64,000 nucleotides of DNA from Escherichia coli (GTDB lineage Bacteria; Pseudomonadota; Gammaproteobacteria; Enterobacterales; Enterobacteriaceae): assembly GCF_044324875.1 (NCBI RefSeq), contig NZ_CP172185.1; one strand, written 5' to 3'. Positions 6,264 through 64,000 of this stretch are shown here, piece by piece. Both the position numbers and the translations under genes were made by a program. Each line of letters starts with the position of its first letter. Position 1 is the stretch's first letter. The notes below the pieces were generated by a model, which was not told the DNA's origin, made no database searches, and saw only the letters and a list, made by a program, of their open reading frames with translations.

Positions 6264-6310
6264 CCCCCACCAACTGCAGCGGTTGGTGGGGGCTTAACTG
6301 TTATTTTTTG
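6264..6310 (+). terminator. Perfect 11-bp stem hairpin (CCCCCACCAAC-tgcagcg-GTTGGTGGGGG) followed by T-rich tract
   Basis: Seen directly, 10 nt after the integrase stop; could terminate either strand. Confidence 0.45.
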
Positions 6311-6803: not shown

Positions 6804-7746
6804 TCAGTTACCTGTTGCGTTTCCCCCGGTCTGATGAGCCAGAGACACAATGGTCTGTACCGTTCTGTTGATATTAAACCGGTATTCGATATCTTCTCTG
6901 GCGCTGGCAACCATCATCCTGAAGCGTTCCGGGCGGGACAAAAAATCCCGAAGCGCACTGGTCCATGCAGTCATATCTCCCACAGGTAAAAGTGTTCCTG
7001 TCACATTTTTCTGAATGGCATCCGGGATCCCGCCAGTCTCACTGGCAATAACGGGAACACCGGAGGCTGACGCTTCAGCCAGGACCATGCCAAATGCCTC
7101 ATTTTTCAGAAGGCATGATAGCACACTGGCAACCCGGTATATCGGTAACGCCGGGAAAACAGCACCAGCCATGAAAACATCACCACTCATTCCCAGTGAT
7201 TCAATCTGCAGGCGAAGGCGTTCTTCGTATTCCTCACGACCAGCGCCCACCACGAGCCATCGAAATACTTTCCCTTCCATCTTCAGTTGGTGCAACACCC
7301 GGAGCATAAATTCATGCCCTTTCTCGGGACGCAACATACCCACCTGGACAATCAGCGGGATATTGCCCGCTGATTCTGTCCATCCCTGAATATGCGGAGG
7401 TAACTGTTGCCTGACTTCTCTGTGTAATACAGAAACGATGCCAGCATATCAGACGGCTCAGGCCTGCAATGTTACTGTCATGACCACTGTGGCAGATTAC
7501 CAGATCAGGTCTGAATTACCGGATTACCTGCCGCAGTCTGATGATGGAAGGAAGGTGAAGACTGTTCCTGAAAGGAATAAAAGTAACATCATGTCCGATT
7601 GTTCTGGCTTCATGAGCTATTTTACTTTTTTCCCTGCAGGCGAGTAAAACAGAATGCCCCTGTTTCTGGAGCGCTGTCATCTGTGCCAGAGCCTGTAACT
7701 CCTGGCCACCAATATCTGGTGAAGACTCAGTGAATAAAATCTTCAT
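6804..7746 (-). pseudogene. Family-1 (GT4-type) glycosyltransferase, frameshifted
   Basis: N-terminal ORF 7516..7746 and C-terminal ORF 6804..7343 (motif EAFGMVLAEASASGVPVIASETGGIPD) are in different frames with stops between them. Confidence 0.6.
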
Positions 7747-8401: not shown

Positions 8402-9417
8402 TCCCCCCTGATAAAAATATTAAAGTTCAGCGGATGTTACTGTCCGCCAGTTATTTTTTGCGAGCCACTCTATCTGTTCACAAAATATTTCAGGTGAAAG
8501 TGTCACAAGCCCCGGACAGCGACTGACATGATGGTACATCAGTACGGGAAGATGTCTTGCATTCAACATAAAGCATTATCACCAGTTAGTTATACAGTAA
8601 ATATACCCCGAGTAAAAACAGGGCGGTTTAGGATATGTCTGGCTCCGGGTATTCTACTATGTAATCAGGGAATAATGGACAATGAGAATACAACAGACAC
8701 TTTTAATATTTCCGACTGTTTATCAAAATAATTTTATCCTTTGTGAATATATTGTTTTTATCAGATGATTTACTTATTTTCCAGGAAAATAAAATCCTTC
8801 GATTTCAGGACACTCAGAGGAATATACCTGCTTCCGTCAAAAATCATAAAAACCGTGTCCCGATTAGTTTTAGCAGCAGGATCAAATGCAGTAATATAAT
8901 GATCTTATACCAGTAAGCCACTGGGAAATGCCCTCAAAATGTCGTGCACTGATTTTTCGGTTGAGAGCCTCATAATACCTAATATTACTGGCCGTAATAA
9001 TCCGGAGGCACAGCATAGCTTTCTTGTACAGAGGCATCATGATGAACAGGATTAATACCGTCACAGATGCACAAGTTTTACCCGTGATAAAGAATCCCGT
9101 TTTGTCCGCACTTGCCTGCGCCAGCGTTGAAAACGTGCCGGTTATTGTAGTTAAGTTATTGCCGCTAACTTTTTCACAACCCACCTATCCGGATATTTCC
9201 TTATTCTTCATATATTACATCTCATAAATTTAAATGTGAGTTTCTCATGGGTAAAATAAATTATACGAATCGCATCAATAGGAAAGACAGACGGTGCTGC
9301 CGATATAAAACGGGAAGTGACGGGATAAGCAGTTATGTGAATATTGTTTCAAAAAATGATATTTTGTGTTGTTAAAGTATAACTTTGCAATAAGCTATCC
9401 ATGATGGGATTCTGTAA

Positions 9418-25748: not shown

Positions 25749-25943
25749 CGTACACCTCAGTCAGATATTATCTGACTGACAGCGTGCGAAGAAAGCGCTC
25801 ATTTATCAGCAATAAATTAAAAACGGGATTAAAAAATTACGGTGGGATCCGGGGAAGTGTATCTGCCAAGCATAACAGACAGTCTGTGATTATACCCGGC
25901 CTTTCACAAAGCCGGGGAACTGATTCATACCAAGTGGTGATTT

Positions 25944-26681: not shown

Positions 26682-28769
26682 TCAGAACTGATAGTTCAGC
26701 GACATCCAGTAATTTCTCTCAGGTATCACATAACCCGTTGTCGATGCCCCCGTCTGGAAGTAATCACCCGCATAAAGCGTACCACTGCCGGCACGATACA
26801 GACTTACGTCACTGTAATCCTTGTTAAGCACATTATTCACCGCTGCATTCAGCATCAGTGCATCCGTCACTTTCCACGACATGCCCGCATCCAGTACCGT
26901 CCAGGCTTTCAGATATTCACCTTTCTCATCATACACTTTCTTCTGTACAGCTGAGAGTGACGAATAATTCTGGGTGAAACGTGGCGTTTTCCCGCGGTAA
27001 CGGGCACCCAGCCATGATGTCACCTCTTCAGTAATCTGCCAGTTCAGTTTCGCATTCACCATATGCTCAGGGGTGTAACTCAGTGGTGCACCTTTATTAT
27101 CCCCATCCCGTTGTTCACTCTGCGTCCAGGTATAATTCAGAGACAGAGTCACATCCTCTGACAACAGAGGCAGTGTGCCGGCAAATTCCACGCCCTGAGT
27201 CCTAGCCTTTCCGCTGTTTGTGTAGCTGCGGGTATTATCATCAATGGAATAAGATACGATCTTGTTGGAGAATTCTGTCATAAAGCCCGTGATATTGGCG
27301 TTCAGACCGGCATGATTATCGTAATACACGCCCGCTTCATAACTGACACTCTCCTCCGGCTTCAGGTCCGGGTTACCGAGAAGATTCGTACGCCCCTGAC
27401 CGGACACACCGCTGATCCCCTTATGTAACTGCCCCATGCTGGGCGCCTTATATCCCGTGGTCACCCCACCTTTCAGCGTCCACGCATCAGTCACATCCCA
27501 GACCATATATGCCCGGGGACTGAAGTGTCCTCCGAACACCTCATAGCGTTCATAGCGGCTACCCGCAGTCAGTGCAAATGCATCCGTGATATACCACTCA
27601 TCCTCAACAAATGCCGACCAGCTTTTCTGACGGAAGGTTTCACCAGTACTGGCGAGAACAACCCCGTCTTTCATGGAGGAGTTCTGATACTCACCACCGA
27701 CGGTAACCTTGTGTGATTCCCCCAGAGGTGCAAACAGTAATGAGCTCAGGATAAGATTCGACTCCTTAAGCTCCCTCGGCTGGCCGGCAAGCCCCCATTT
27801 ATCACGCTGCAGTACGCTACGTACAAGCTGACGGCCTTTATTTTCCGTCTCATTCCAGTTCAGGGATGACTTCCAGGCTCCGAAGGTGAATGTATGATCA
27901 TAGCCTGCTGAAATTTTATTACGCTCATAGCGCAGGGTGCGATCATAACCGCCCGTCAGACTGCCCAGCTGGCCATCTCGGTTATCATAACGCTGCCGGG
28001 CGATATCCATATCAATCCAGAGTACATCCTTGTCCGTCGCTTTCCAGTCAAGACGACCACCTGCATTATAATTCTGTGATTCCGTGGGATAAGGGATACG
28101 CGTAGCTGAGGTGTCGCTCAGTGATGTGACCGATGAGCCCTGACGCTGCTGTGTGCTGCCACGTACCTGAAGGCTGAGTGAATCATCCACAAGGGGACCG
28201 CTGCTCCAGAAATTAAACTGGCTGCTGTTCCCCCATTTGTTACTTTCCTGCAGGTTCAGCCCGGCATTAACCGAAGAGCGCCATTTGTCTGCATTCTTTT
28301 TGGTGATGATATTCACCACGCCCCCCATGGCATCAGAGCCGTACAGAGTGGACATGGGGCCCCTGATAATCTCAATACGTTCGATGGCGGCCAGAGGTGG
28401 CATAAAACCCGTATTCATGGCAGCATAACCGTTTGGGGTTACGTCACTGCTCCCGCCCTGACGGACACCATCGATCAGTATCAGCGTATAACTGGCAGGC
28501 ATTCCGCGGATGCTGATTTCCAGCCCACCTGTTTTACCCGTACCGCTTTCAACATCCACCCCCTCTACGGATCTCAGTGCCTCCCCCAGATCATGATACT
28601 GGCTGGATCGCAAATCCTCCTGGCTGATCACTGAAACACTCGCAGCTGCACTGGTTAATTTTTTTTCATAGCCAGACGCCGTGACTACCATCACATCTTC
28701 CGCAGCCATACTGCTGACTGAAAACCCGAGACAAGGGATGGCTACTGAAGCCAGAGTGGTTACTCGCAT
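26682..28769 (-). CDS. iha: TonB-dependent outer-membrane siderophore receptor/adhesin Iha (IrgA homologue)
   Basis: 695 aa; signal peptide; TonB-box/plug then beta-barrel ending ...YWMSLNYQF; closely matches Iha as recalled. Confidence 0.8.
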   Translation of the reverse strand: MRVTTLASVAIPCLGFSVSSMAAEDVMVVTASGYEKKLTSAAASVSVISQEDLRSSQYHDLGEALRSVEGVDVESGTGKTGGLEISIRGMPASYTLILIDGVRQGGSSDVTPNGYAAMNTGFMPPLAAIERIEIIRGPMSTLYGSDAMGGVVNIITKKNADKWRSSVNAGLNLQESNKWGNSSQFNFWSSGPLVDDSLSLQVRGSTQQRQGSSVTSLSDTSATRIPYPTESQNYNAGGRLDWKATDKDVLWIDMDIARQRYDNRDGQLGSLTGGYDRTLRYERNKISAGYDHTFTFGAWKSSLNWNETENKGRQLVRSVLQRDKWGLAGQPRELKESNLILSSLLFAPLGESHKVTVGGEYQNSSMKDGVVLASTGETFRQKSWSAFVEDEWYITDAFALTAGSRYERYEVFGGHFSPRAYMVWDVTDAWTLKGGVTTGYKAPSMGQLHKGISGVSGQGRTNLLGNPDLKPEESVSYEAGVYYDNHAGLNANITGFMTEFSNKIVSYSIDDNTRSYTNSGKARTQGVEFAGTLPLLSEDVTLSLNYTWTQSEQRDGDNKGAPLSYTPEHMVNAKLNWQITEEVTSWLGARYRGKTPRFTQNYSSLSAVQKKVYDEKGEYLKAWTVLDAGMSWKVTDALMLNAAVNNVLNKDYSDVSLYRAGSGTLYAGDYFQTGASTTGYVIPERNYWMSLNYQF

Positions 28770-28817: not shown

Positions 28818-28834
28818 AGATAATGAGAATGATT
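28818..28834 (-). promoter_or_regulatory. Candidate Fur box upstream of iha (GATAATGAGAATGATTT)
   Basis: Close match to the Fur consensus about 50 bp upstream of the iha start. Confidence 0.4.
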
Positions 28835-29093
28835 TGCTTTTGGTTTTTACATAAAAAAGTAAAAAATTACAAAATATTACATAAGGTTCTACTATACCCC
28901 GAATTTCAGTTGAGGACGTTCTTTTCTCTAGGGGAAAGTAACGGATAGCAATCGTTGACGATCCATATCGGATTTTTGCACTATGGGTATTTATCCAATC
29001 TTTATCAGTTTCTTGTCCTTGGATATGTTAATCATACACTATCGGATATTTCGTACATCAGACAGGTGAATATAATTAATAATGAGGAGTTTT

Positions 29094-34178: not shown

Positions 34179-35069
34179 TCAGGCTGCCAGATCATCGTTT
34201 CCGATGGAAGCATAATAAGATTTTTCTGCTTCTGCCGGTGGGATATGGCCCAGCCTTTCCAGCAATCGTCGATTGTTATACCAGTCCACCCACGTGAGTG
34301 TGGCCAGCTCCACTTCTGTCCGGTTTTTCCAGCTCTTACGGTGTATTACCTCCGCTTTGTAAAGGCCATTGATGCTCTCCGCCATCGCGTTGTCATACGA
34401 GTCACCAGTACTTCCTGTTGATGCCAGTAATCCGGCTTCCTTAAGCCGCTGTGTGTAGGCCAGCGATACATACTGAGAACCTTTATCACTGTGATGGACT
34501 GTGCCGGACGGTCGACGGGCCCATAACGCCTGCTCCAGAGCATCCAGCACGAATGTCGTTTCCATAGACGATGAGACCCGCCACCCCACGATGTATCCGG
34601 CAAACACATCAATGATGAACGCCACATAGACGACCCCCTCCCATGTGCTGACGTAAGTAAAATCAGCCACCCACAACTGGTCAGGACGTTCTGCCACAAA
34701 CTGACGGTTTACGCGGTCGCCTGCGGCAACGGCTTTCCGGCTGACGGTAGTGCGGACCTTTTTACCCCGGAGAACACCGGCAAGTCCCATAACCGCCATG
34801 AGGCGCGCCACTGTACATCTGGCTACCCTGATTCCTTCCCGTAACAACTGACGCCAGACTTTACGCACACCGTATACCTGATGATTCCCATCGTATACGC
34901 GCAGTATCTCTTTCTTCAGCCAGTCATCGCGCTGCGCACGGGCACTGCGTTTATCCGGATGATGTCGCTGTTGCTGACAGTGGTAATACGTTGACGGGGC
35001 AATATGTAGTTCACTGCATACCGGTCCGACCCCGTACAGCTTACGCAGCTTATCCAGCAGTGGCATCAC
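34179..35069 (-). CDS. IS629 OrfB
   Basis: Identical to copy 1 OrfB except for one residue (Q/E). Confidence 0.9.
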
Positions 35070-35392
35070 TTTTTCCAGAGGCGGTCGAACTCCGCCTTCG
35101 CAAAATAAGCGGAAGCCTGGCGAAGGATATCGTTACTGCGGCGCAGTTCACGATTTTCACGTTCCAGCTCTTTCAGACGCTGACGTTCAGCGGTGGTGAG
35201 CCCGCCATCACCGCCTCCGGTATCCCGCTCATGCTGGCGTACCCAGACACGCAGAGTCTCCGGTGTACAGCCAATCTTTGGGGCAATGGAACAAATTGCC
35301 GCCCACTGTGAGTCATATTCGCCCTGACTTTCCAGAACCATACGAATCGCCCTCTGACGGACTTCGGGGGAAAAACGAGTATTTTTAGTCAT
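35066..35392 (-). CDS. IS629 OrfA
   Basis: Identical to copy 1 OrfA except for one residue. Confidence 0.9.
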
Positions 35393-37799: not shown

Positions 37800-38560
37800 T
37801 GAGTGAGTGCATTTCGTACAGTTAACCGCAAAAGGAGGGGGTACTCCATTCCATGAACTGGAAGCCCAGATACGATGCATAGAGTCACCTGATATTAAAA
37901 AGAACGAGGATCTTGAGGACGAGAACCGACGTCCAAAACAGATGCTTGCCGACCTTAGCCTAGAGAACCGGCATTGAAAGACATTATCGAAAAAAGCTTT
38001 AAAACCAGCCTGTAAGCGTGAGCTTGTTACTCATCAGATAACGACATTTGGACTCAGTGTCCATCAGGCCTGCCGGAGTCTGAACCAGAGCAGAACGGTT
38101 TCCCATTACCGTCCGGATACCACGTGGTACGACCCCGTTATTGTGGTGGTGCAGGCAGTGGACGAGCGATATCCTCGATACGGTTTTTCAAAACTTTTTC
38201 AGGTTCTGAGGCAGCAGGTTCGCGGCAAATCGCAGTTATCCGGTCATGCTGCGCATAGATAATGGTTCGGAATTTATCTCTCTAACGCTGGCTGAATGGG
38301 CTGATATACACGCAGTAAAACGGGAGTTTATCCAGCCGGGTAAGCTGACGTAGAACGCTTTTATTGGGCGTTTTAACAGGACACACCGTACAGAAATACT
38401 CGATTTTTATCTGTTCAGAACGCTGAATGAAGTTCTAGAAATTACGGAGAAATGGTTATCAGAATATAGCTATGAACGCACACATGAATCACTGAACAAT
38501 AAGACGCTGGAAGAATATCGACGACACCATTATTTGACCAAGATATAAAAATGCATGGAA
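37800..38560 (+). pseudogene. Degenerate IS3-family OrfB with several in-frame stops
   Basis: ...MLRIDNGSEFISLTLAEWADIHAVKREFIQPGKLT*NAFIGRFNRTHRTEILDFYLF... Confidence 0.5.
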
Positions 38561-44691: not shown

Positions 44692-46645
<1,954 letters not shown>

Positions 46646-53235: not shown

Positions 53236-55505
53236 TGTGTGCCCGGAGTTCAGGGCGAGCATAGACGCTCAAATGAACCACGAGTCTGTCTGGAATATTG
53301 AACCGGTAACTCACGATGAGAAACCCAACAATCCCACCGGGTGTGACGGTGGAGAACCTGAGCGGCAGTGACCTGCGGCATGCCCGCAGGGTGATGTAAC
53401 CCGCTGACAACGGGGATTGAGGCGAGATCACTAAGCCGAGATGATCCTCAAGGTTAAGTACTGAAAGGCTTAAGAATATGAACCCGTTAATCCGCCTCTG
53501 TGGGTTGAAAACGTCACCACGGCCTACGTGATCTGACAGGCCGTGCAGGAGGAACTGGCAGTGATACGTAAGCACTGCCGGTCGAAGGTGTTTTGACATG
53601 TATGCGAAACTCCGGGGCAGCAGCGTCTATCACGCTCGCGTTGCTGACTTCTGCCAACTTGCGGCAAGCAAGGATAAAGAGTGCGACGGGCAGCCTCCTC
53701 AGTATGTCTGAGTCCAGTCAGGCAAACCGGGGAAGGTCAGCGACGGATGTTAAGGGGGCATGGCTCCGATGACGCGCTGGCTGGCGGAGCTTCCGTAGTA
53801 GTCCGCGATGGGGAAAGCCCATTACATGGCGAAGGGAAGCAGTTTGAATGTGTCTGCGACGTAAATTAACTGACCTAACGAGGTGAAGACCTTTGATAAT
53901 CAGCGAAATGCAACGCAAGCTTGCCACATGGGCAGCCACCGATCCGTCCCTACGGATTCAACGGCTGCTGCGTCTGATAACACAACCAGAATGGCTGGCT
54001 GAAGCGGCGCGGATCACGCTTTCATCAAAGGGGGCGAATACCCCCGGTGTTGATGGCGTGAACAAAACAATGCTACAGGCCAGACTGGCTGTTGAGCTGC
54101 AAATCCTCAGGGATGAATTACTCTCAGGCCACTACCAGCCCTTGCCCGCCAGGCGGGTTTACATCCCTAAAAGCAATGGCAAACTGCGACCACTGGGTAT
54201 CCCCGCGTTGCGGGATCGTATTGTTCAGCGGGCCATGCTGATGGCGATGGAGCCGATATGGGAGAGTGATTTTCATACGCTCTCATATGGCTTCCGGCCT
54301 GAGCGCAGTGTCCACCACTCGATCCGCACGGTGAAATTACAGCTCACCGACTGCGGTGAAACCCGGGGACGCTGGGTGATTGAAGGCGACCTGTCCAGTT
54401 ACTTCGACACCGTACATCATCGACTGCTGATGAAGGCTGTACGCCGCAGGATCAGTGACGCACGTTTCATGACTCTGCTGTGGAAAACCATCAAGGCGGG
54501 ACATATCGATGTCGGTCTCTTTCGGGCGGCCAGTGAAGGTGTGCCACAGGGCGGTGTTATATCGCCGCTATTGTCGAACATCATGCTGAATGAGTTCGAT
54601 CAATACCTGCATGAGCGCTACCTGAGCGGGAAAGCAAGAAAAGATCGGTGGTACTGGAATAACAGTATCCAACTGGGCCGAAGTACGGCGGTCAGAGAAA
54701 ACTGGCAGTGGAAACCCGCGGTGGCGTACTGCCGCTATGCCGATGATTTTGTCCTCATCGTCAAAGGCACCAAAGCACAGGCGGAAGCCATCAGGGAGGA
54801 GTGTCGGGGTGTGCTCGAAGGCAGTCTGAAACTCAGGCTGAACATGGATAAGACTAAAATCACCCATGTTAATGACGGCTTTATCTTTCTGGGGCACAGG
54901 ATCATTCGCAAACGCAGTCGTTATGGCGAGATGCAAGTGGTCTCAACGATCCCGCTGGAGAAAGCCAGAAACTTCGCCGCATCGCTGACAGCACTGTTAT
55001 CAGGCAACTACAGTGAAAGCAAAGTCGATATGGCTGAACAACTCAACCGAAAACTGAAAGGCTGGGCCATGTTCTATCAGTTCGTTGATTTTAAGGCCAA
55101 AGTCTTCAGTTATATCGACCGTGTCGTGTTCTGGAAGCTGGCTCACTGGCTGGCCCGCAAATACCGTACAAGTATCGCTTCCCTGATGAGGTGGTGGTGT
55201 AAATCACCGAAACCGGGTCAGAGCAAAACGTGGGTTTTATTTGGTAAAACCAATCACGGCAAGCTCAGCGGCGAAATACTGTACCGGTTGGTGGGGCAAG
55301 GCAAGAAGCTGTTCCGCTGGCGGCTACCCGAAGGTAATCCCTATCTGAGGACGGAAACCAGAAAGACGTATACATCGCGCTTTACAGAAGTGGCAATGGC
55401 GTTCGCCAGCGTTTAAATGGAGAGCCGGATGCGCTGAAAGGTGCATGTCCGGTTCGGGGAGGAGAGGCAGGGAAATAGTCCGACTACGCCCTGCCTCTTA
55501 CTCTA
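53236..55505 (+). mobile_element. Bacterial group II intron with intron-encoded protein (boundaries +/- 3 bp)
   Basis: 5' TGTGTG start; IEP ORF 53893..55416; domain V-like GAGCCGGATGCGCTGAAAGGTGCATGTCCGGTTC at 55422..55455 followed by a domain VI-like stem. Confidence 0.75.
53893..55416 (+). CDS. Group II intron reverse transcriptase/maturase
   Basis: 507 aa, full length; RT motifs including YADD (CRYADDFVLIV) and a C-terminal maturase region. Confidence 0.85.
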   Translation: MIISEMQRKLATWAATDPSLRIQRLLRLITQPEWLAEAARITLSSKGANTPGVDGVNKTMLQARLAVELQILRDELLSGHYQPLPARRVYIPKSNGKLRPLGIPALRDRIVQRAMLMAMEPIWESDFHTLSYGFRPERSVHHSIRTVKLQLTDCGETRGRWVIEGDLSSYFDTVHHRLLMKAVRRRISDARFMTLLWKTIKAGHIDVGLFRAASEGVPQGGVISPLLSNIMLNEFDQYLHERYLSGKARKDRWYWNNSIQLGRSTAVRENWQWKPAVAYCRYADDFVLIVKGTKAQAEAIREECRGVLEGSLKLRLNMDKTKITHVNDGFIFLGHRIIRKRSRYGEMQVVSTIPLEKARNFAASLTALLSGNYSESKVDMAEQLNRKLKGWAMFYQFVDFKAKVFSYIDRVVFWKLAHWLARKYRTSIASLMRWWCKSPKPGQSKTWVLFGKTNHGKLSGEILYRLVGQGKKLFRWRLPEGNPYLRTETRKTYTSRFTEVAMAFASV

Positions 55506-55959
55506 CTGCGTACCGATGAGGGCTGGTTGTATCTCACAGTAGTCATCGACCTGTGGTCACGCGCCGTCATTGGCTGGTCGATGTCACCGCGAATGACAGC
55601 ACAACTGGCCTGTGATGCACGGCAAATGGCGTTGTGGCGGAGAAGACGCCCGGAAAGCGTCATTGCTCATACGGACCGTGGTGGTCAATACTGTTCAGGG
55701 GATTATCAGGCGCTGCTGAAGCGACACAACCTGCGTGGCAGTATGAGTGCGAAAGGCTACTGTTATGACAATGCCTGTGTGGAAAGCTTCTTTCATTCGC
55801 TGAAGGTGGAATGTATCCACGGGGAACGCTTTAGCAGCCGGGAAATAATGCGGGCAACGGTGTTTAATTATATCGAGTGTGATTACAATCGCTGGCGTCG
55901 TCACAGTGCCTGTGGCGGTCTCAGCCCGGAACAATTTGAAAACCATAATCTCGCTTAGG

Positions 55960-58637: not shown

Positions 58638-58765
58638 AACGGGCTGTCTGATATTTCTGTGAGCTAAAAAGACACCGTAATACAGGTATCTCACAGTAAC
58701 TGAAAGATATGCACATGCAGCCAGGGAAGATTAAGGGTAAGGGAGGATATCCCTTACCTGATTGA

Positions 58766-59290
58766 TTATGGGATGATACCACAGGCAATTCTTGCACCAC
58801 CGCCACCTAGAGGTTCAGGATGGTCATCATGATTATCACCTCCTGCGTGGAGCATTAGCGAACGGCCATCGAGCTCCTTTAATTCAGATAGTCTTGGCGC
58901 AAGCACCGGGTAGGTTGCTTTTCCGTCATGAGTGACATAAAGCGCAGGGAGATCACCCAGGTGGCCATCAGGAGACCATGGACCGAGATGCTTCCCTGTT
59001 TTTTCCGGGTCAAAGTGACCACCTGCAGATAAAGCAGCGACAGTTTTTCCATCTTTCAGGGCAGGAGCACAACTTGCGTTTTCATGTACATGAAAACCAT
59101 GAATGCCGGCGGGTAAGGAGTGAAGATCAGGGGTGAACAGCAGCCCGTAGGGTGTCTTCTGGATGGTTATTTTACCAATATTTCGCTCTTTTCCGTCACT
59201 ATCAACAAGATTCATTGTTACATCTTTGGTGGCTGCATATCCACAGGATGATGTAGCCAGAATCACAAAGGCAATAAGTTTACGTTTCAT
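58766..59290 (-). CDS. sodC: Periplasmic Cu/Zn superoxide dismutase (island-borne, divergent from chromosomal SodC)
   Basis: 174 aa; signal peptide; metal-ligand motifs HGFHVHE and [12 protein letters not shown]. Confidence 0.85.
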
Positions 59291-60210: not shown

Positions 60211-60950
60211 ATGGACGACACACAATTGCAGGCTCTGGCTAACGAACTGGCCAAAAATCTCAAAACCCCTGAAGATCTCAGTCAGTTCGATCGCCTGCTC
60301 AAGAAAATAAGTGTTGAGGCAGCTCTCAACGCTGAACTGACTCACCATCTGGGACATGAAAAAAATCAGACCAAATCGGGAACCAACTTCCGTAATGGCT
60401 ATTCCACGAAAACCGTCACCACTACCGACGGGCCGATGGAATTACGTACTCCACCTGATCGTGATGGTTCCTTCGAACCACAACTGGTGAAGAAAAATCA
60501 GACCCGCATTACCGGCATGGACAACCAGATCCTGGCGCTGTATGCCAGAGGGATGACTACCCGCGAAATTACCTCAGCCTTCAAAGAAATGTACGACGCC
60601 GATGTCTCGCCCACGCTGATATCCAAAGTGACCGATGCGGTTAAAGAACAGGTCTCTGAATGGCAAAACCGACCGTTGGATGCACTGTATCCCATTGTTT
60701 ATCTTGACTGTATTGTGGTTAAGGTTCGTCACAGCGGGAGTGTCATTAACAAAGCGGTGTTCCTCGCGCTGGGAATCAATACCGACGGTCAGAAAGAGCT
60801 GCTGGATATGTGGCTGGCCGAAAATGAAGGTGCAAAGTTCTGGCTGAATGTACTGACGGAACTGAAAAATCGCGGCCTGAACGATATCCTTATCGCCTTC
60901 GTGGACGGCCTGAAAGGCTTCCCGGAAGCGATTAATGCCGTCTATCCCAT
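60211..60950 (+). pseudogene. IS256-family (IS1414-like) transposase, 3'-truncated
   Basis: 263 aa ORF matches the N-terminal two-thirds of IS1414-type Tnp; diverges just after AINAVYP. Confidence 0.65.
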
Positions 60951-61181
60951 AAAGCCGGATACGCTCATTTTGGGCGGGATCTCCACAAGCATATGGATAT
61001 GATCTGCACAGCACTCAGCTTCAAGAATCCGTACACTTTTCCACTCACACAGCTTTCTCAAAATAATGCCTGTTGCTTTACGCTTCTCTCTGTAGAACAC
61101 TTTTCTTCGGTATTTTGGCGCAAAAACTATGTGATATTTACAGTTCCATCGGGTATGCGCTAAGCTCTTTTCGTTCCCCAT
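60942..61181 (-). pseudogene. IS200 TnpA N-terminal fragment
   Basis: MGNEKSLAHTRWNCKYHIVFAPKYRR...HIHMLVEIPPKMSVSGFMG; 3' half missing. Confidence 0.7.
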
Positions 61182-61270
61182 TGGGACCCCCTTTTGATTT
61201 CTTGTTTGACACTTGCAGTTGCCAGACCGCAAGGTGTTTTAACAAATCAAAAGGGGTTTTAATAACTGGC

Positions 61271-62417
61271 TCAAAGCTGAAAGCTTTCCGGCCCCCAGCC
61301 TAGCTGGGGGTTTTCTGTGCACAAAAATCCGGAAACGAGTGAGCGTTTCAGGATTCTTAAACAGACCCTGGATCGGTCAACTGCTCCTAAACTGATCGGC
61401 ATTACACCTGTCGGCTGCCGTTTTTTCAGCTCCGTGATCCATGGGCCGGGTTCTTTGGTCAGCAATGCTGCCGCCCTTGCCCCATGGATAAATAATGTCC
61501 GGTGGTAGGTATCCCCACGTTTGCTTATCCCCAGCATGCGAACCTTCCCAGCGGACCCCGTCTGCTTCGGCACCAGACAGACATAAGCGTCAAACTCACG
61601 TCCGGATTTAAATGCTGAGGCCTCGCCCATGGTGGCGACCACCGCCGTAGCGATTAACGGCCCCACACCGGGGATTTCCATTAGGCGCTTACAGTTTTCG
61701 CTCTGCCGTGCCACGCTGTTAATCTGTTTATCAAGGCCATCTATCTGCATGCCCAGCTCACTCAGTCTGTTGTACTGGTATTCAAGCACAGTGATGAGAT
61801 ACGGCGGCAGGTTCGTCTTCATTCGCTCTAGGGCTGTCGGTAGCTTTCTGTCCATCGCTGTCCGATCTTTGTGGAGGATTTCACCAAACTCGAGGAGCGT
61901 GCCAAGGGTATTAATATGCGAGGTTCTGAACTTCACCAGTTGTCTGCGCGAACGGTGCAGGACCAGAACTGACTGCTTCTCTTCCGTTTTAACAGCGATA
62001 TCTTTACTGGGCTGCTGTACCGCCATCCAGATAGCACGCGCATCCATCACATCATTTTTGTTGCCCATGACGAATGCTTTAACGAAGCGAGCTTGCAACA
62101 GCCGAACTTTGTGTCCCAGTTTTTTCCAGTTCCCTCGCCCAATGTTGGGAGCCTCCACAAGCCTCCATACCTATCAGACAGGGTTCCCGGTTGCTGAAGA
62201 ACGTCAGAAAATCCTTGCTACGTAGCTGCTTGTCCACCACTTCGCCCGTGTACTCATTGATGAAGTGAACCTGAATCAGATACTTTGCGATATCAACGCC
62301 AACCGGTGTATATTTCATTTGTGGAGTCGCCAGTCTGAGGGCGCTTTTGCATCCCGTATTGGGCACTATGATGCCGGAAATCTGAGAGGCTCCACAGCAG
62401 ACAATTTTACCCTTCAT
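61271..62417 (-). pseudogene. IS110-family transposase, frameshifted
   Basis: N-terminal ORF 62079..62417 and C-terminal ORF 61271..62158 overlap in different frames. Confidence 0.6.
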
Positions 62418-62556
62418 CCATCACAGTGCACCTCTCTTAACAGGGCAGGATGTGTTCAGTACATTTCTCCTTTTATGGTTACAGTTTATCCATCATGGCG
62501 TAATTGAAGGCTGTCGTGAAGGAGAGGAAGAGCATCTCATCACTTACAAACAAATA

Positions 62557-62577
62557 CATTAATGATAACCATTTGCA
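62557..62577 (+). promoter_or_regulatory. Candidate Fur box upstream of sitA
   Basis: ACATTAATGATAACCATTTGC, Fur-consensus-like. Confidence 0.45.
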
Positions 62578-62597
62578 TTTGTATAGATTATGCTATA

Positions 62598-62619
62598 AAA
62601 CATAGCCGTTGCTATGTTT
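62598..62619 (+). promoter_or_regulatory. MntR operator palindrome upstream of sitA
   Basis: AAACATAGC-cgtt-GCTATGTTT, perfect inverted repeat of MntR-box type. Confidence 0.6.
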
Positions 62620-62651
62620 GTTCTAATTTTGCTCACTATAGGTACTGAATT

Positions 62652-63566
62652 ATGCACTCAATAAAAAAATTAACCATGCTCTTGGGGTTCCTCGCCCTCA
62701 CCTGCTCGATCGCATTTCAGGCGAGTGCAACTGAAAAATTCAAGGTCATTACAACATTTACCATCATCGCAGATATGGCCAAAAACGTGGCTGGAGATGC
62801 TGCAGAAGTCTCATCCATAACCAGGCCCGGTGCAGAAATTCATGAGTATCAGCCTACCCCTGGCGATATTAAACGTGCGCAGGGGGCACAACTGATTCTC
62901 GCCAACGGTATGAATCTGGAATTGTGGTTCCAGCGCTTTTACCAGCATCTCAGTGGTGTTCCAGAAGTGATTGTCTCTTCGGGTGTGACGCCAGTAGGGA
63001 TCACCGAAGGCCCCTACGAGGGAAAACCTAACCCTCATGCCTGGATGTCGCCAGATAATGCTTTGATTTACGTCGATAATATTCGTGATGCGTTGATAAA
63101 ATACGATCCGGCAAATGCAAAAACATACCAACGTAATGCCGATACTTATAAAGCCAAGATTACCCAAACCCTTGCCCCCCTGCGTAAGCAGATTGCTGAA
63201 CTCCCTGAGAATAAAAGATGGATGGTCACCAGTGAAGGGGCTTTTTCTTATCTCGCACGCGATTTGGGGCTAAAAGAGCTTTATCTGTGGCCGATAAATG
63301 CCGATCAACAAGGAACACCCCAGCAGGTACGTAAAGTGGTTGATATAGTGAAGAAAAATAATATCCCAGCGGTATTTAGTGAGAGTACGGTTTCCGATAA
63401 ACCAGCGCGTCAGGTTGCGCGTGAAACCGGCGCACACTACGGCGGTGTGCTCTATGTCGATTCCCTGAGCACAGAAAACGGCCCGGTACCTACGTATATC
63501 GACCTTCTGAAGGTTACTACCAGTACGCTGGTGCAGGGAATTAAAGCCGGGAAAAGGGAGAAGTAA
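62652..63566 (+). CDS. sitA: Mn/Fe ABC transporter periplasmic binding protein SitA
   Basis: 304 aa; signal peptide; TroA/ZnuA-like cluster-9 binding protein; followed by an ATPase gene. Confidence 0.8.
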   Translation: MHSIKKLTMLLGFLALTCSIAFQASATEKFKVITTFTIIADMAKNVAGDAAEVSSITRPGAEIHEYQPTPGDIKRAQGAQLILANGMNLELWFQRFYQHLSGVPEVIVSSGVTPVGITEGPYEGKPNPHAWMSPDNALIYVDNIRDALIKYDPANAKTYQRNADTYKAKITQTLAPLRKQIAELPENKRWMVTSEGAFSYLARDLGLKELYLWPINADQQGTPQQVRKVVDIVKKNNIPAVFSESTVSDKPARQVARETGAHYGGVLYVDSLSTENGPVPTYIDLLKVTTSTLVQGIKAGKREK

Positions 63567-64000
63567 TGATGCAATCTGCGGGTATTGTCGTTAATGGCGT
63601 TACTGTCACCTGGCGTAACGGGCACACAGCACTGCGCGATGCATCCTTCACAGTACCAGGCGGATCTATTGCCGCTCTGGTTGGGGTAAACGGTTCCGGA
63701 AAATCGACGTTATTTAAAGCGATTATGGGATTCGTGCGTCTGACTACCGGAAAGATATCTGTTCTGGGTATTCCCACGCGGCAGGCTCTGCAGAAAAACC
63801 TGATTGCCTACGTCCCGCAGTCAGAAGAAGTGGACTGGTCCTTTCCTGTACTGGTGGAAGATGTGGTGATGATGGGCCGCTATGGGCATATGGGTATGTT
63901 GCGTATAGCCAATAAGAGGGATCGTCAGGTTGTCACCGATGCGCTGGAACGTGTCGATATGGTAGATTTTCGCCATCGACAAATCGGCGAGCTTTCCGGT
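63567..64000 (+). CDS. sitB: Mn/Fe ABC transporter ATP-binding protein SitB (5' part; continues beyond window)
   Basis: Read directly: MMQSAGIVVNGVTVTW...GVNGSGKSTLFKAIMGF...; open to the window end. Confidence 0.75.

Follow-up and report, generated by a model that had tools for sequence, protein, structure and literature searches.

The stretch of DNA analysed here, in the following called the window, comprises 64,000 nucleotides of an Escherichia coli chromosome and represents an island that is riddled with insertion sequences and is 99.8–99.9% identical to DNA of avian and human E. coli isolates. Close to its downstream end it carries sitA and the first part of sitB, which belong to an operon predicted to encode the SitABCD Mn2+/Fe2+ ABC importer. 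The sitA reading frame is intact and runs over 304 codons from its ATG at 62652. In NCBIfam, no SitA-specific model passes its cut-off, and models of Mn/Fe ABC substrate-binding proteins match, all of them below their curated cut-offs. The name sitA hence rests on the RefSeq annotation of near-identical DNA, namely a 99.5% identical stretch in NZ_CP033635.1 that is annotated as sitA and has the same upstream junction. In that genome sitA, sitB, sitC and sitD are all intact, and since the window ends inside sitB, the integrity of the operon is read from genomes with the identical junction only.

Layout and conservation of the sitA control region

In the region just 5' of sitA, a Fur site and an MntR operator are predicted (Table 1). 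From 62550 to the sitA start codon, the DNA reads ACAAATACAT TAATGATAAC CATTTGCATT TGTATAGATT ATGCTATAAA ACATAGCCGT TGCTATGTTT GTTCTAATTT TGCTCACTAT AGGTACTGAA TTATG.

Table 1. Features of the sitA control region and its neighbours, with positions in the window
Feature	Position	Strand	Remarks
IS110-family remnant, non-coding end 5' of the transposase ATG	62418–62547	-	abuts the sit control region
Junction bases AAACAAATAC, origin uncertain	62548–62557	.	beyond the end of the IS homology
Primary Fur box ATTAATGATAACCATTTGC	62558–62576	.	14/19 to consensus; 17.0 bits with weight matrix; conserved core
Overlapping second Fur site GATAACCATTTGCATTTGT, +6 bp	62564–62582	.	11.8 bits
Putative -35 TTTGCA	62572–62577	+	4/6 to TTGACA; 16 nt 5' of TATAAA
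Degenerate upstream MntR-type palindrome	62579–62600 (core ATAGA-TTAT-GCTAT, 62583–62596)	.	9/10 to core
Putative extended -10 TGcTATAAA	62591–62599	+	read from the sequence; TG at 62591–62592, hexamer TATAAA at 62594–62599
Perfect MntR operator AAACATAGC-CGTT-GCTATGTTT	62598–62619	.	arms as in K-12 mntH
Likely ribosome-binding site AGG	62640–62642	+	9 nt 5' of the ATG; no variation among E. coli alleles
sitA, intact gene for a periplasmic Mn/Fe-binding protein of 304 aa	62652–63566	+	open reading frame
sitB, 5' part	63566–64000	+	start overlaps the sitA stop (TAATG); runs off the window end

A sit operon is present in about half of the complete E. coli genomes (2694 of 5426), where its neighbour is uspF, an icd fragment or, on ColV-type plasmids, IS1, or where it has the context of the window, and a Fur box together with the palindrome occurs in every E. 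coli context seen. A scan for SitA in species-representative genomes, from which the many alpha-proteobacterial matches were left out, returned Enterobacter, Lelliottia, Shimwellia, Pluralibacter, Citrobacter, Klebsiella sp., Cedecea, Erwinia and Pantoea among the matches listed, with no Salmonella or Escherichia among them. The order of Fur box, palindrome or palindromes and sitA recurs in all of these genera up to and including Erwinia, and likewise in four further contexts of sit in E. coli. When 15 sitA promoters were aligned, conservation was found to start at the Fur box, and the invariant parts are the core of the Fur box and the motifs GCTAT, TAG(C) and GCTA. Upstream of the Fur box, nothing in this alignment is conserved across the genera.

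The promoter hexamers were read by eye, and the overlap between operators and promoter is accordingly a putative one. At the putative -35 position of the alignment, TTT(T/G)CA is present in 15 of 15 sitA promoters and coincides with the right end of the Fur box. The GCTAT of the putative extended -10 element, which is invariant as well, doubles as right arm of the upstream palindrome (GCTATAAA) and would place the likely -10 hexamer inside that arm. The positions equivalent to both proposed hexamers are also occupied in the other genera. A sigma-70 scan listed no promoter between 62560 and 62650, nor at the homologous position of three other sit alleles, in line with its demand for a T at position 6 of the -10 element, due to which TATAAA would not be listed. 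At the gathering threshold of Rfam, there was no match in 62400–62650.

Elsewhere in the island, an intact sodC gene for a Cu,Zn superoxide dismutase (58766–59290, minus strand; NF007628, 218 bits) lies about 3.4 kb upstream of sitA and is flanked by IS fragments, and the order sodC, sitABCD, iutA is also found in NZ_CP033635.1. Matches at the Rfam gathering threshold comprise isrN (38001–38143, minus strand, 138 bits), STnc490 (61191–61312, minus strand, 134 bits), which overlaps an ORF fragment of an IS200/IS605 transposase at 60942–61232, a group II intron domain (55420–55506, plus strand), and ALIL frameshift pseudoknots at 2705–2821 and 34995–35111 (both minus strand), whose equal scores suggest two copies of one IS3-family element.

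Palindromes of the MntR type

In the preliminary description, an exact inverted repeat of the MntR-operator type had been claimed in front of sitA, and the claim was borne out in both of its parts. The element at 62598–62619 (AAACATAGCCGTTGCTATGTTT) has arms of 9 nt that are 100% complementary and enclose a spacer of 4 nt, it ends 32–33 nt before the sitA ATG, and it shares both half-sites, base for base, with the mntH operator of E. coli K-12 (AAACATAGC-AAAG-GCTATGTTT). A search for AAACATAGC-N4-GCTATGTTT with up to three mismatches gave this element as the sole match in the window, compared to 0.04 expected, and while it agrees at 18 of the 18 specified positions, the runner-up anywhere in the window reaches 13 of 18. 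Perfect 9-bp inverted repeats as such are not rare, with about eight distinct loci in the window against about 2.7 expected, and it is consequently the sequence of the arms, and not the perfection of the repeat, that counts. Further perfect inverted repeats, whose arms measure 9 bp or more and whose spacers are short, are located at 25757–25779 (TCAGTCAGATATTATCTGACTGA), 6265–6291, 7350–7375, 46562–46582, 58736–58758, 59078–59097 and 8774–8792.

The best matches to the operator that are found in K-12 upstream of mntS, of mntP (two matches) and of dps, a gene which we presume to be an MntR target too, agree at 14–15 of 18 positions and keep the core (A/T)TAGC-N4-GCTAT. Both mntS and mntP are targets of MntR (PMC9315381). 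The mntR gene itself is present in E. coli K-12 and lies outside the 64-kb window. Among sit alleles, the perfect operator is identical in those of E. coli chromosomes and agrees at 17 of 18 positions in the plasmid allele, and 15 sitA promoters from at least eight genera have the core TAG(C)...GCTA unchanged and in the same place. A text search of the literature for the string AAACATAGC returned unrelated matches only, and a phrase search for MntR sites returned nothing on sit. On one strand, the 4-bp spacer has the form A-N-N-G at the K-12 sites of mntH (AAAG), mntS (ACAG) and dps (ACCG), and the spacer of the window operator reads AACG on the minus strand. The MntR operator may hence have an orientation in spite of its symmetric arms.

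The degenerate palindrome that precedes the perfect one by 19 bp was compared with the core ATAGC-N4-GCTAT. Only four sites in the window match this core at 9 or more of 10 positions, and two of them are the pair in front of sitA. Outside of E. coli, two palindromes of the form (A/T)TAGC-N4-GCTA are found exactly 19 bp apart in 10 of the 11 Enterobacterales sitA promoters examined. The left arm of the upstream palindrome differs between the E. coli alleles. The plasmid allele has ATAGC, and thereby a perfect core at this position, the icd-type allele has ATAGG, and the uspF-type allele has ATTGC. In Shimwellia (locus 2925–2967) and at four further loci, each of the two palindromes mirrors the other, including the spacer (ATAGC-CTGT-GCTAT ... 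ATAGC-ACAG-GCTAT).

The question arises whether the palindrome could act in the RNA rather than as a protein operator, either as an intrinsic terminator or attenuator of upstream transcripts or as a structure within the 5'-UTR. A terminator scan lists 62598–62619 plus the following GTTCTAATTT as terminator-like, and likewise in another sit allele, and the RNA of the palindrome folds at -9.8 kcal/mol (z = -3.4 vs shuffles). In Shimwellia, both palindromes can moreover jointly form a potential stem of 19 bp that is followed by a T-rich tail and is flagged by the same scan, but Klebsiella sp., Cedecea, Erwinia and E. coli lack this long stem. An RNA stem would constrain the pairing alone, whereas here the arm sequence itself is conserved and equals that of mntH, the same core gives the best match 5' of mntS, mntP and dps at differing positions, and the spacer varies freely. 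Further, if transcription started about 7 nt after TATAAA, as the putative -10 element would suggest, only half of the palindrome would be transcribed. An intrinsic terminator was rejected in particular, given that the stem has just three G-C pairs, that the T-run GTTCTAATTT is interrupted, that the element is positioned before a gene and not behind one, and that it is sequence rather than pairing which is conserved. Covariation is of no use for telling hairpin and operator apart, because a symmetric protein site gives the same mirrored changes as a stem. Altogether, we regard a function of the palindrome as an RNA hairpin as very unlikely.

The Fur box and the IS110 junction

The Fur-like box, which had been placed at 62557–62577 (CATTAATGATAACCATTTGCA), proved to be real, though less striking than the palindrome. 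In its best register it is shorter by one base on either side (ATTAATGATAACCATTTGC) and agrees with the consensus GATAATGATAATCATTATC at 14 of 19 positions. With up to three mismatches, the Fur consensus gave no match, and at 14 or more of 19 positions there are ten strand-specific matches in the window, that is this site and nine others. Since a plain consensus count is thus not discriminating, a trained position weight matrix was used instead. The matrix is symmetrised, covers 19 bp and was trained on 10 Fur-regulated promoters of K-12 that are unrelated to sit, namely fepA-fes, fepD-entS, fepB-entC, fecI, fhuA, cirA, fiu, tonB, exbB and ryhB. The sitA box scores 17.0 bits and takes rank 2 of 63,982 positions, so that it held up in the weight-matrix scan that had been suggested for it. 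For comparison, the leave-one-out scores of the training sites have a median of 15.3 bits and range from 9.1 to 17.8, and the mntH promoter, which was left out of the training, scores 18.4 bits.

Rank 1 in the window is held by a site at 28819–28837 (GATAATGAGAATGATTTGC; 18.3 bits, 15/19 to the consensus), which is located about 50 bp 5' of an intact gene for a TonB-dependent receptor of 695 aa (26682–28769, minus strand). The receptor scores 1538 bits against NCBIfam NF010012 and is a relative of IreA and CirA. As the best-ranked site sits before such a gene, the matrix appears to pick metal-uptake promoters, which represents an internal positive control. The receptor gene is itself probably a further Fur-controlled iron-uptake gene of the island.

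With ten sites reaching 14/19 and a promoter region that is AT-rich, one could argue that the box is a mere chance match and that MntR alone controls the operon. Only 2 of 2000 random 300-mers reach 17.0 bits, however, and a second, overlapping Fur site follows 6 bp downstream, a pattern that is usual for clusters of Fur sites (PMC2189734). The Fur core A.TGA.AA...TT..CAT is furthermore invariant at the same position in the 15 sitA promoters, directly upstream of the palindromes, and a Salmonella fur mutant strongly derepresses sitA, which is up 53.8-fold (PMC3212961). A chance match thus appears to us to be hardly conceivable.

On its upstream side, the control region borders on a remnant of an IS110-family element (61271–62547 in all, minus strand), which consists of a C-terminally truncated transposase gene and the upstream non-coding end, the part that encodes the bridge RNA in the IS110 family. 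The N-terminus of the transposase is encoded at 62079–62417 on the minus strand, with the ATG at 62417, and the gene is frameshifted and truncated. Between 62470 and 62547, the DNA is 88–92% identical to that just 5' of other E. coli IS110-family genes for an 'RNA-guided transposase'. This homology ends at ...CTTAC, at 62547 to 62550, beyond which independent copies diverge, and homology with other sit alleles starts at 62551–62560, depending on the allele. By these alignments, the foreign DNA comes to within about 10 bp of the Fur box. The junction is 100% identical in 53 complete E. coli genomes, including SMS-3-5. The sit loci of the uspF type, the icd type and the plasmids have a common block (CAGCAGGAAACAAACTAATCCCTGTTTTGG...) about 30–130 bp upstream of their Fur boxes, which is missing in the window and is not conserved outside of E. 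coli.

The vicinity of the IS110 end raises the possibility that the MntR operator is functional while Fur control has been weakened or lost in this lineage, through the remnant, which would have replaced the DNA up to the edge of the box, and through two substitutions that lower the score of the box, so that the operon would mainly respond to manganese. In favour of this scenario, IS-derived DNA reaches 62547, and the Fur box of this allele lies 5–7 bits below those of the chromosomal E. coli sit alleles (22.8–24.1 bits), which also agree better with the consensus (17/19). A weak sigma-70-like site, TTAACA-17-TACATT (62437–62465, plus strand), is in addition found inside the IS end and faces sitA. 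It could be a source of read-in transcription into sitA, but such a match is within chance expectation (1.3 per shuffle). The score of the box nevertheless exceeds the leave-one-out median of the proven K-12 Fur promoters and is near those of mntH and of the plasmid allele (18.8 bits). Of the base changes, the T>C at 62569 is common to the Fur boxes of Enterobacter and Lelliottia (17.9 bits, as in E. cloacae) and therefore reflects an allele type and not decay. The lack of cross-genus conservation upstream of the box and the preservation of the junction in 53 genomes likewise speak against a weakening or loss of Fur control, which we consider to be improbable.

Given this lack of conservation 5' of the Fur box, the control region appears to be complete, with no recognisable element lost. 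An OxyR element would be a candidate for such a loss, yet its best match reaches 11–12 of 20 positions in all E. coli sit alleles, compared to a shuffle mean of 11.4. This matching is of low power, as the known mntH site itself reaches only 13 of 20, and it gives no indication that the IS element removed an OxyR site.

Proposed control of sitABCD by iron and manganese

Taken together, the region 62558–62619 in all likelihood represents the cis-regulatory region of the sitABCD operon, under dual control by Fur and MntR. The two overlapping Fur sites (62558–62582) would cover the likely -35 element, the degenerate palindrome would hold the likely extended -10 element, and the perfect palindrome would cover the likely transcription start. 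An arrangement in which Fur lies over the -35 and the palindromes lie over the -10 and the start is a classical one for promoter occlusion. With iron being plentiful, Fe2+-Fur would occupy the Fur cluster, and with manganese being plentiful, Mn2+-MntR would occupy the palindrome element, and in either case RNA polymerase would be blocked. The importer would consequently be made only when both metals are scarce. For the strain at hand, binding of the two regulators and the response to metals are predictions from the DNA sequence.

The proposed fit of the region to dual iron/manganese control is thereby supported by the half-sites identical to those of mntH, the weight-matrix score of the Fur box, the conservation in 14 other alleles or genera, and the literature on orthologous operons. 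According to the summaries in PMC3852070, PMC8970401, PMC8432900 and PMC9315381, which cite Ikeda 2005 and Runyen-Janecky 2006, the repressors of sitABCD in Salmonella and Shigella are MntR with Mn and Fur with Fe. Mutations in fur and in mntR derepress a sitA-lacZ fusion (PMC8970401), and Fe and Mn were the most potent in repressing a PsitA-gfp reporter (PMC8432900). The further suggestion that the regulation is intact in spite of the surrounding decay is also favoured, as far as the sequence allows, given that nothing conserved has been lost upstream of the Fur box. It is qualified by the IS110 end about 10 bp from this box, by the weaker Fur score, and by the end of the window inside sitB.

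The closest counterpart is the sitABCD operon within SPI-1 of Salmonella enterica serovar Typhimurium, the same operon, for which a single Fur site and an inverted repeat for MntR have been described in front of sitA, with Mn repression being mainly due to MntR and Fe repression mainly due to Fur (Ikeda 2005, J Bacteriol 187:912, as summarised in PMC3852070, PMC9315381 and PMC8970401). The allele in the window is a different one and resides in an IS-riddled E. coli island, and the likeness is drawn by way of those published summaries. Salmonella sit further has an OxyR element (PMC9315381), whereas none above chance was found in the window or in the other E. coli alleles. The sitABCD operon of Shigella flexneri (Runyen-Janecky et al. 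2003, 2006) is of the E. coli type and lies on a horizontally acquired, IS-rich island, and according to PMC3852070 Fur mediates its repression by Fe and MntR its repression by Mn. In Yersinia pestis, the homologous Mn/Fe ABC importer YfeABCD is metal-repressed as well, but Yersinia is without MntR and responds to Fe as well as to Mn through Fur (PMC3852070), in contrast to the perfect MntR operator found here.

The mntH promoter of K-12 resembles that of sitA in having identical operator arms (AAACATAGC and GCTATGTTT) and a Fur box just upstream of the MntR box, with Fur scores of 18.4 vs 17.0 bits. It differs in that its spacer is AAAG and not CGTT, in that there is a single palindrome, and in that its box lies 14 nt instead of 32 nt from the ATG; its product is an NRAMP-type transporter and not an ABC importer. 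Patzer and Hantke are said to have described an MntR operator and a Fur box in this promoter in 2001.

One could speculate that the control of sit in the Enterobacterales is built on two tandem MntR operators 19 bp apart, in which case two MntR dimers would bind cooperatively across the -10 and +1 positions. In E. coli the upstream operator would then be decaying, and in the present allele the IS110 end and the weaker Fur box could result in Fe and Mn thresholds unlike those of the Salmonella paradigm. We put this forward tentatively, as a possibility with the odds rather against it. The literature searched, which did not extend to the primary sit papers, holds no description of the tandem-palindrome layout, and the layout may already be known.

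Control of sitABCD by Fur plus MntR is itself already known and was first dissected in Salmonella, and the present result is not novel in this respect. It teaches nothing new on Fur or MntR, but it helps the annotation of the region. What is mildly new is that the tandem palindromes are conserved across genera and that an IS110 end lies 10 bp from the Fur box. As judged from the DNA, the sit importer appears to keep a complete metal-sensing control region inside a heavily IS-damaged island, and the occurrence of the identical junction in 53 E. coli genomes fits an operon that is still in use.
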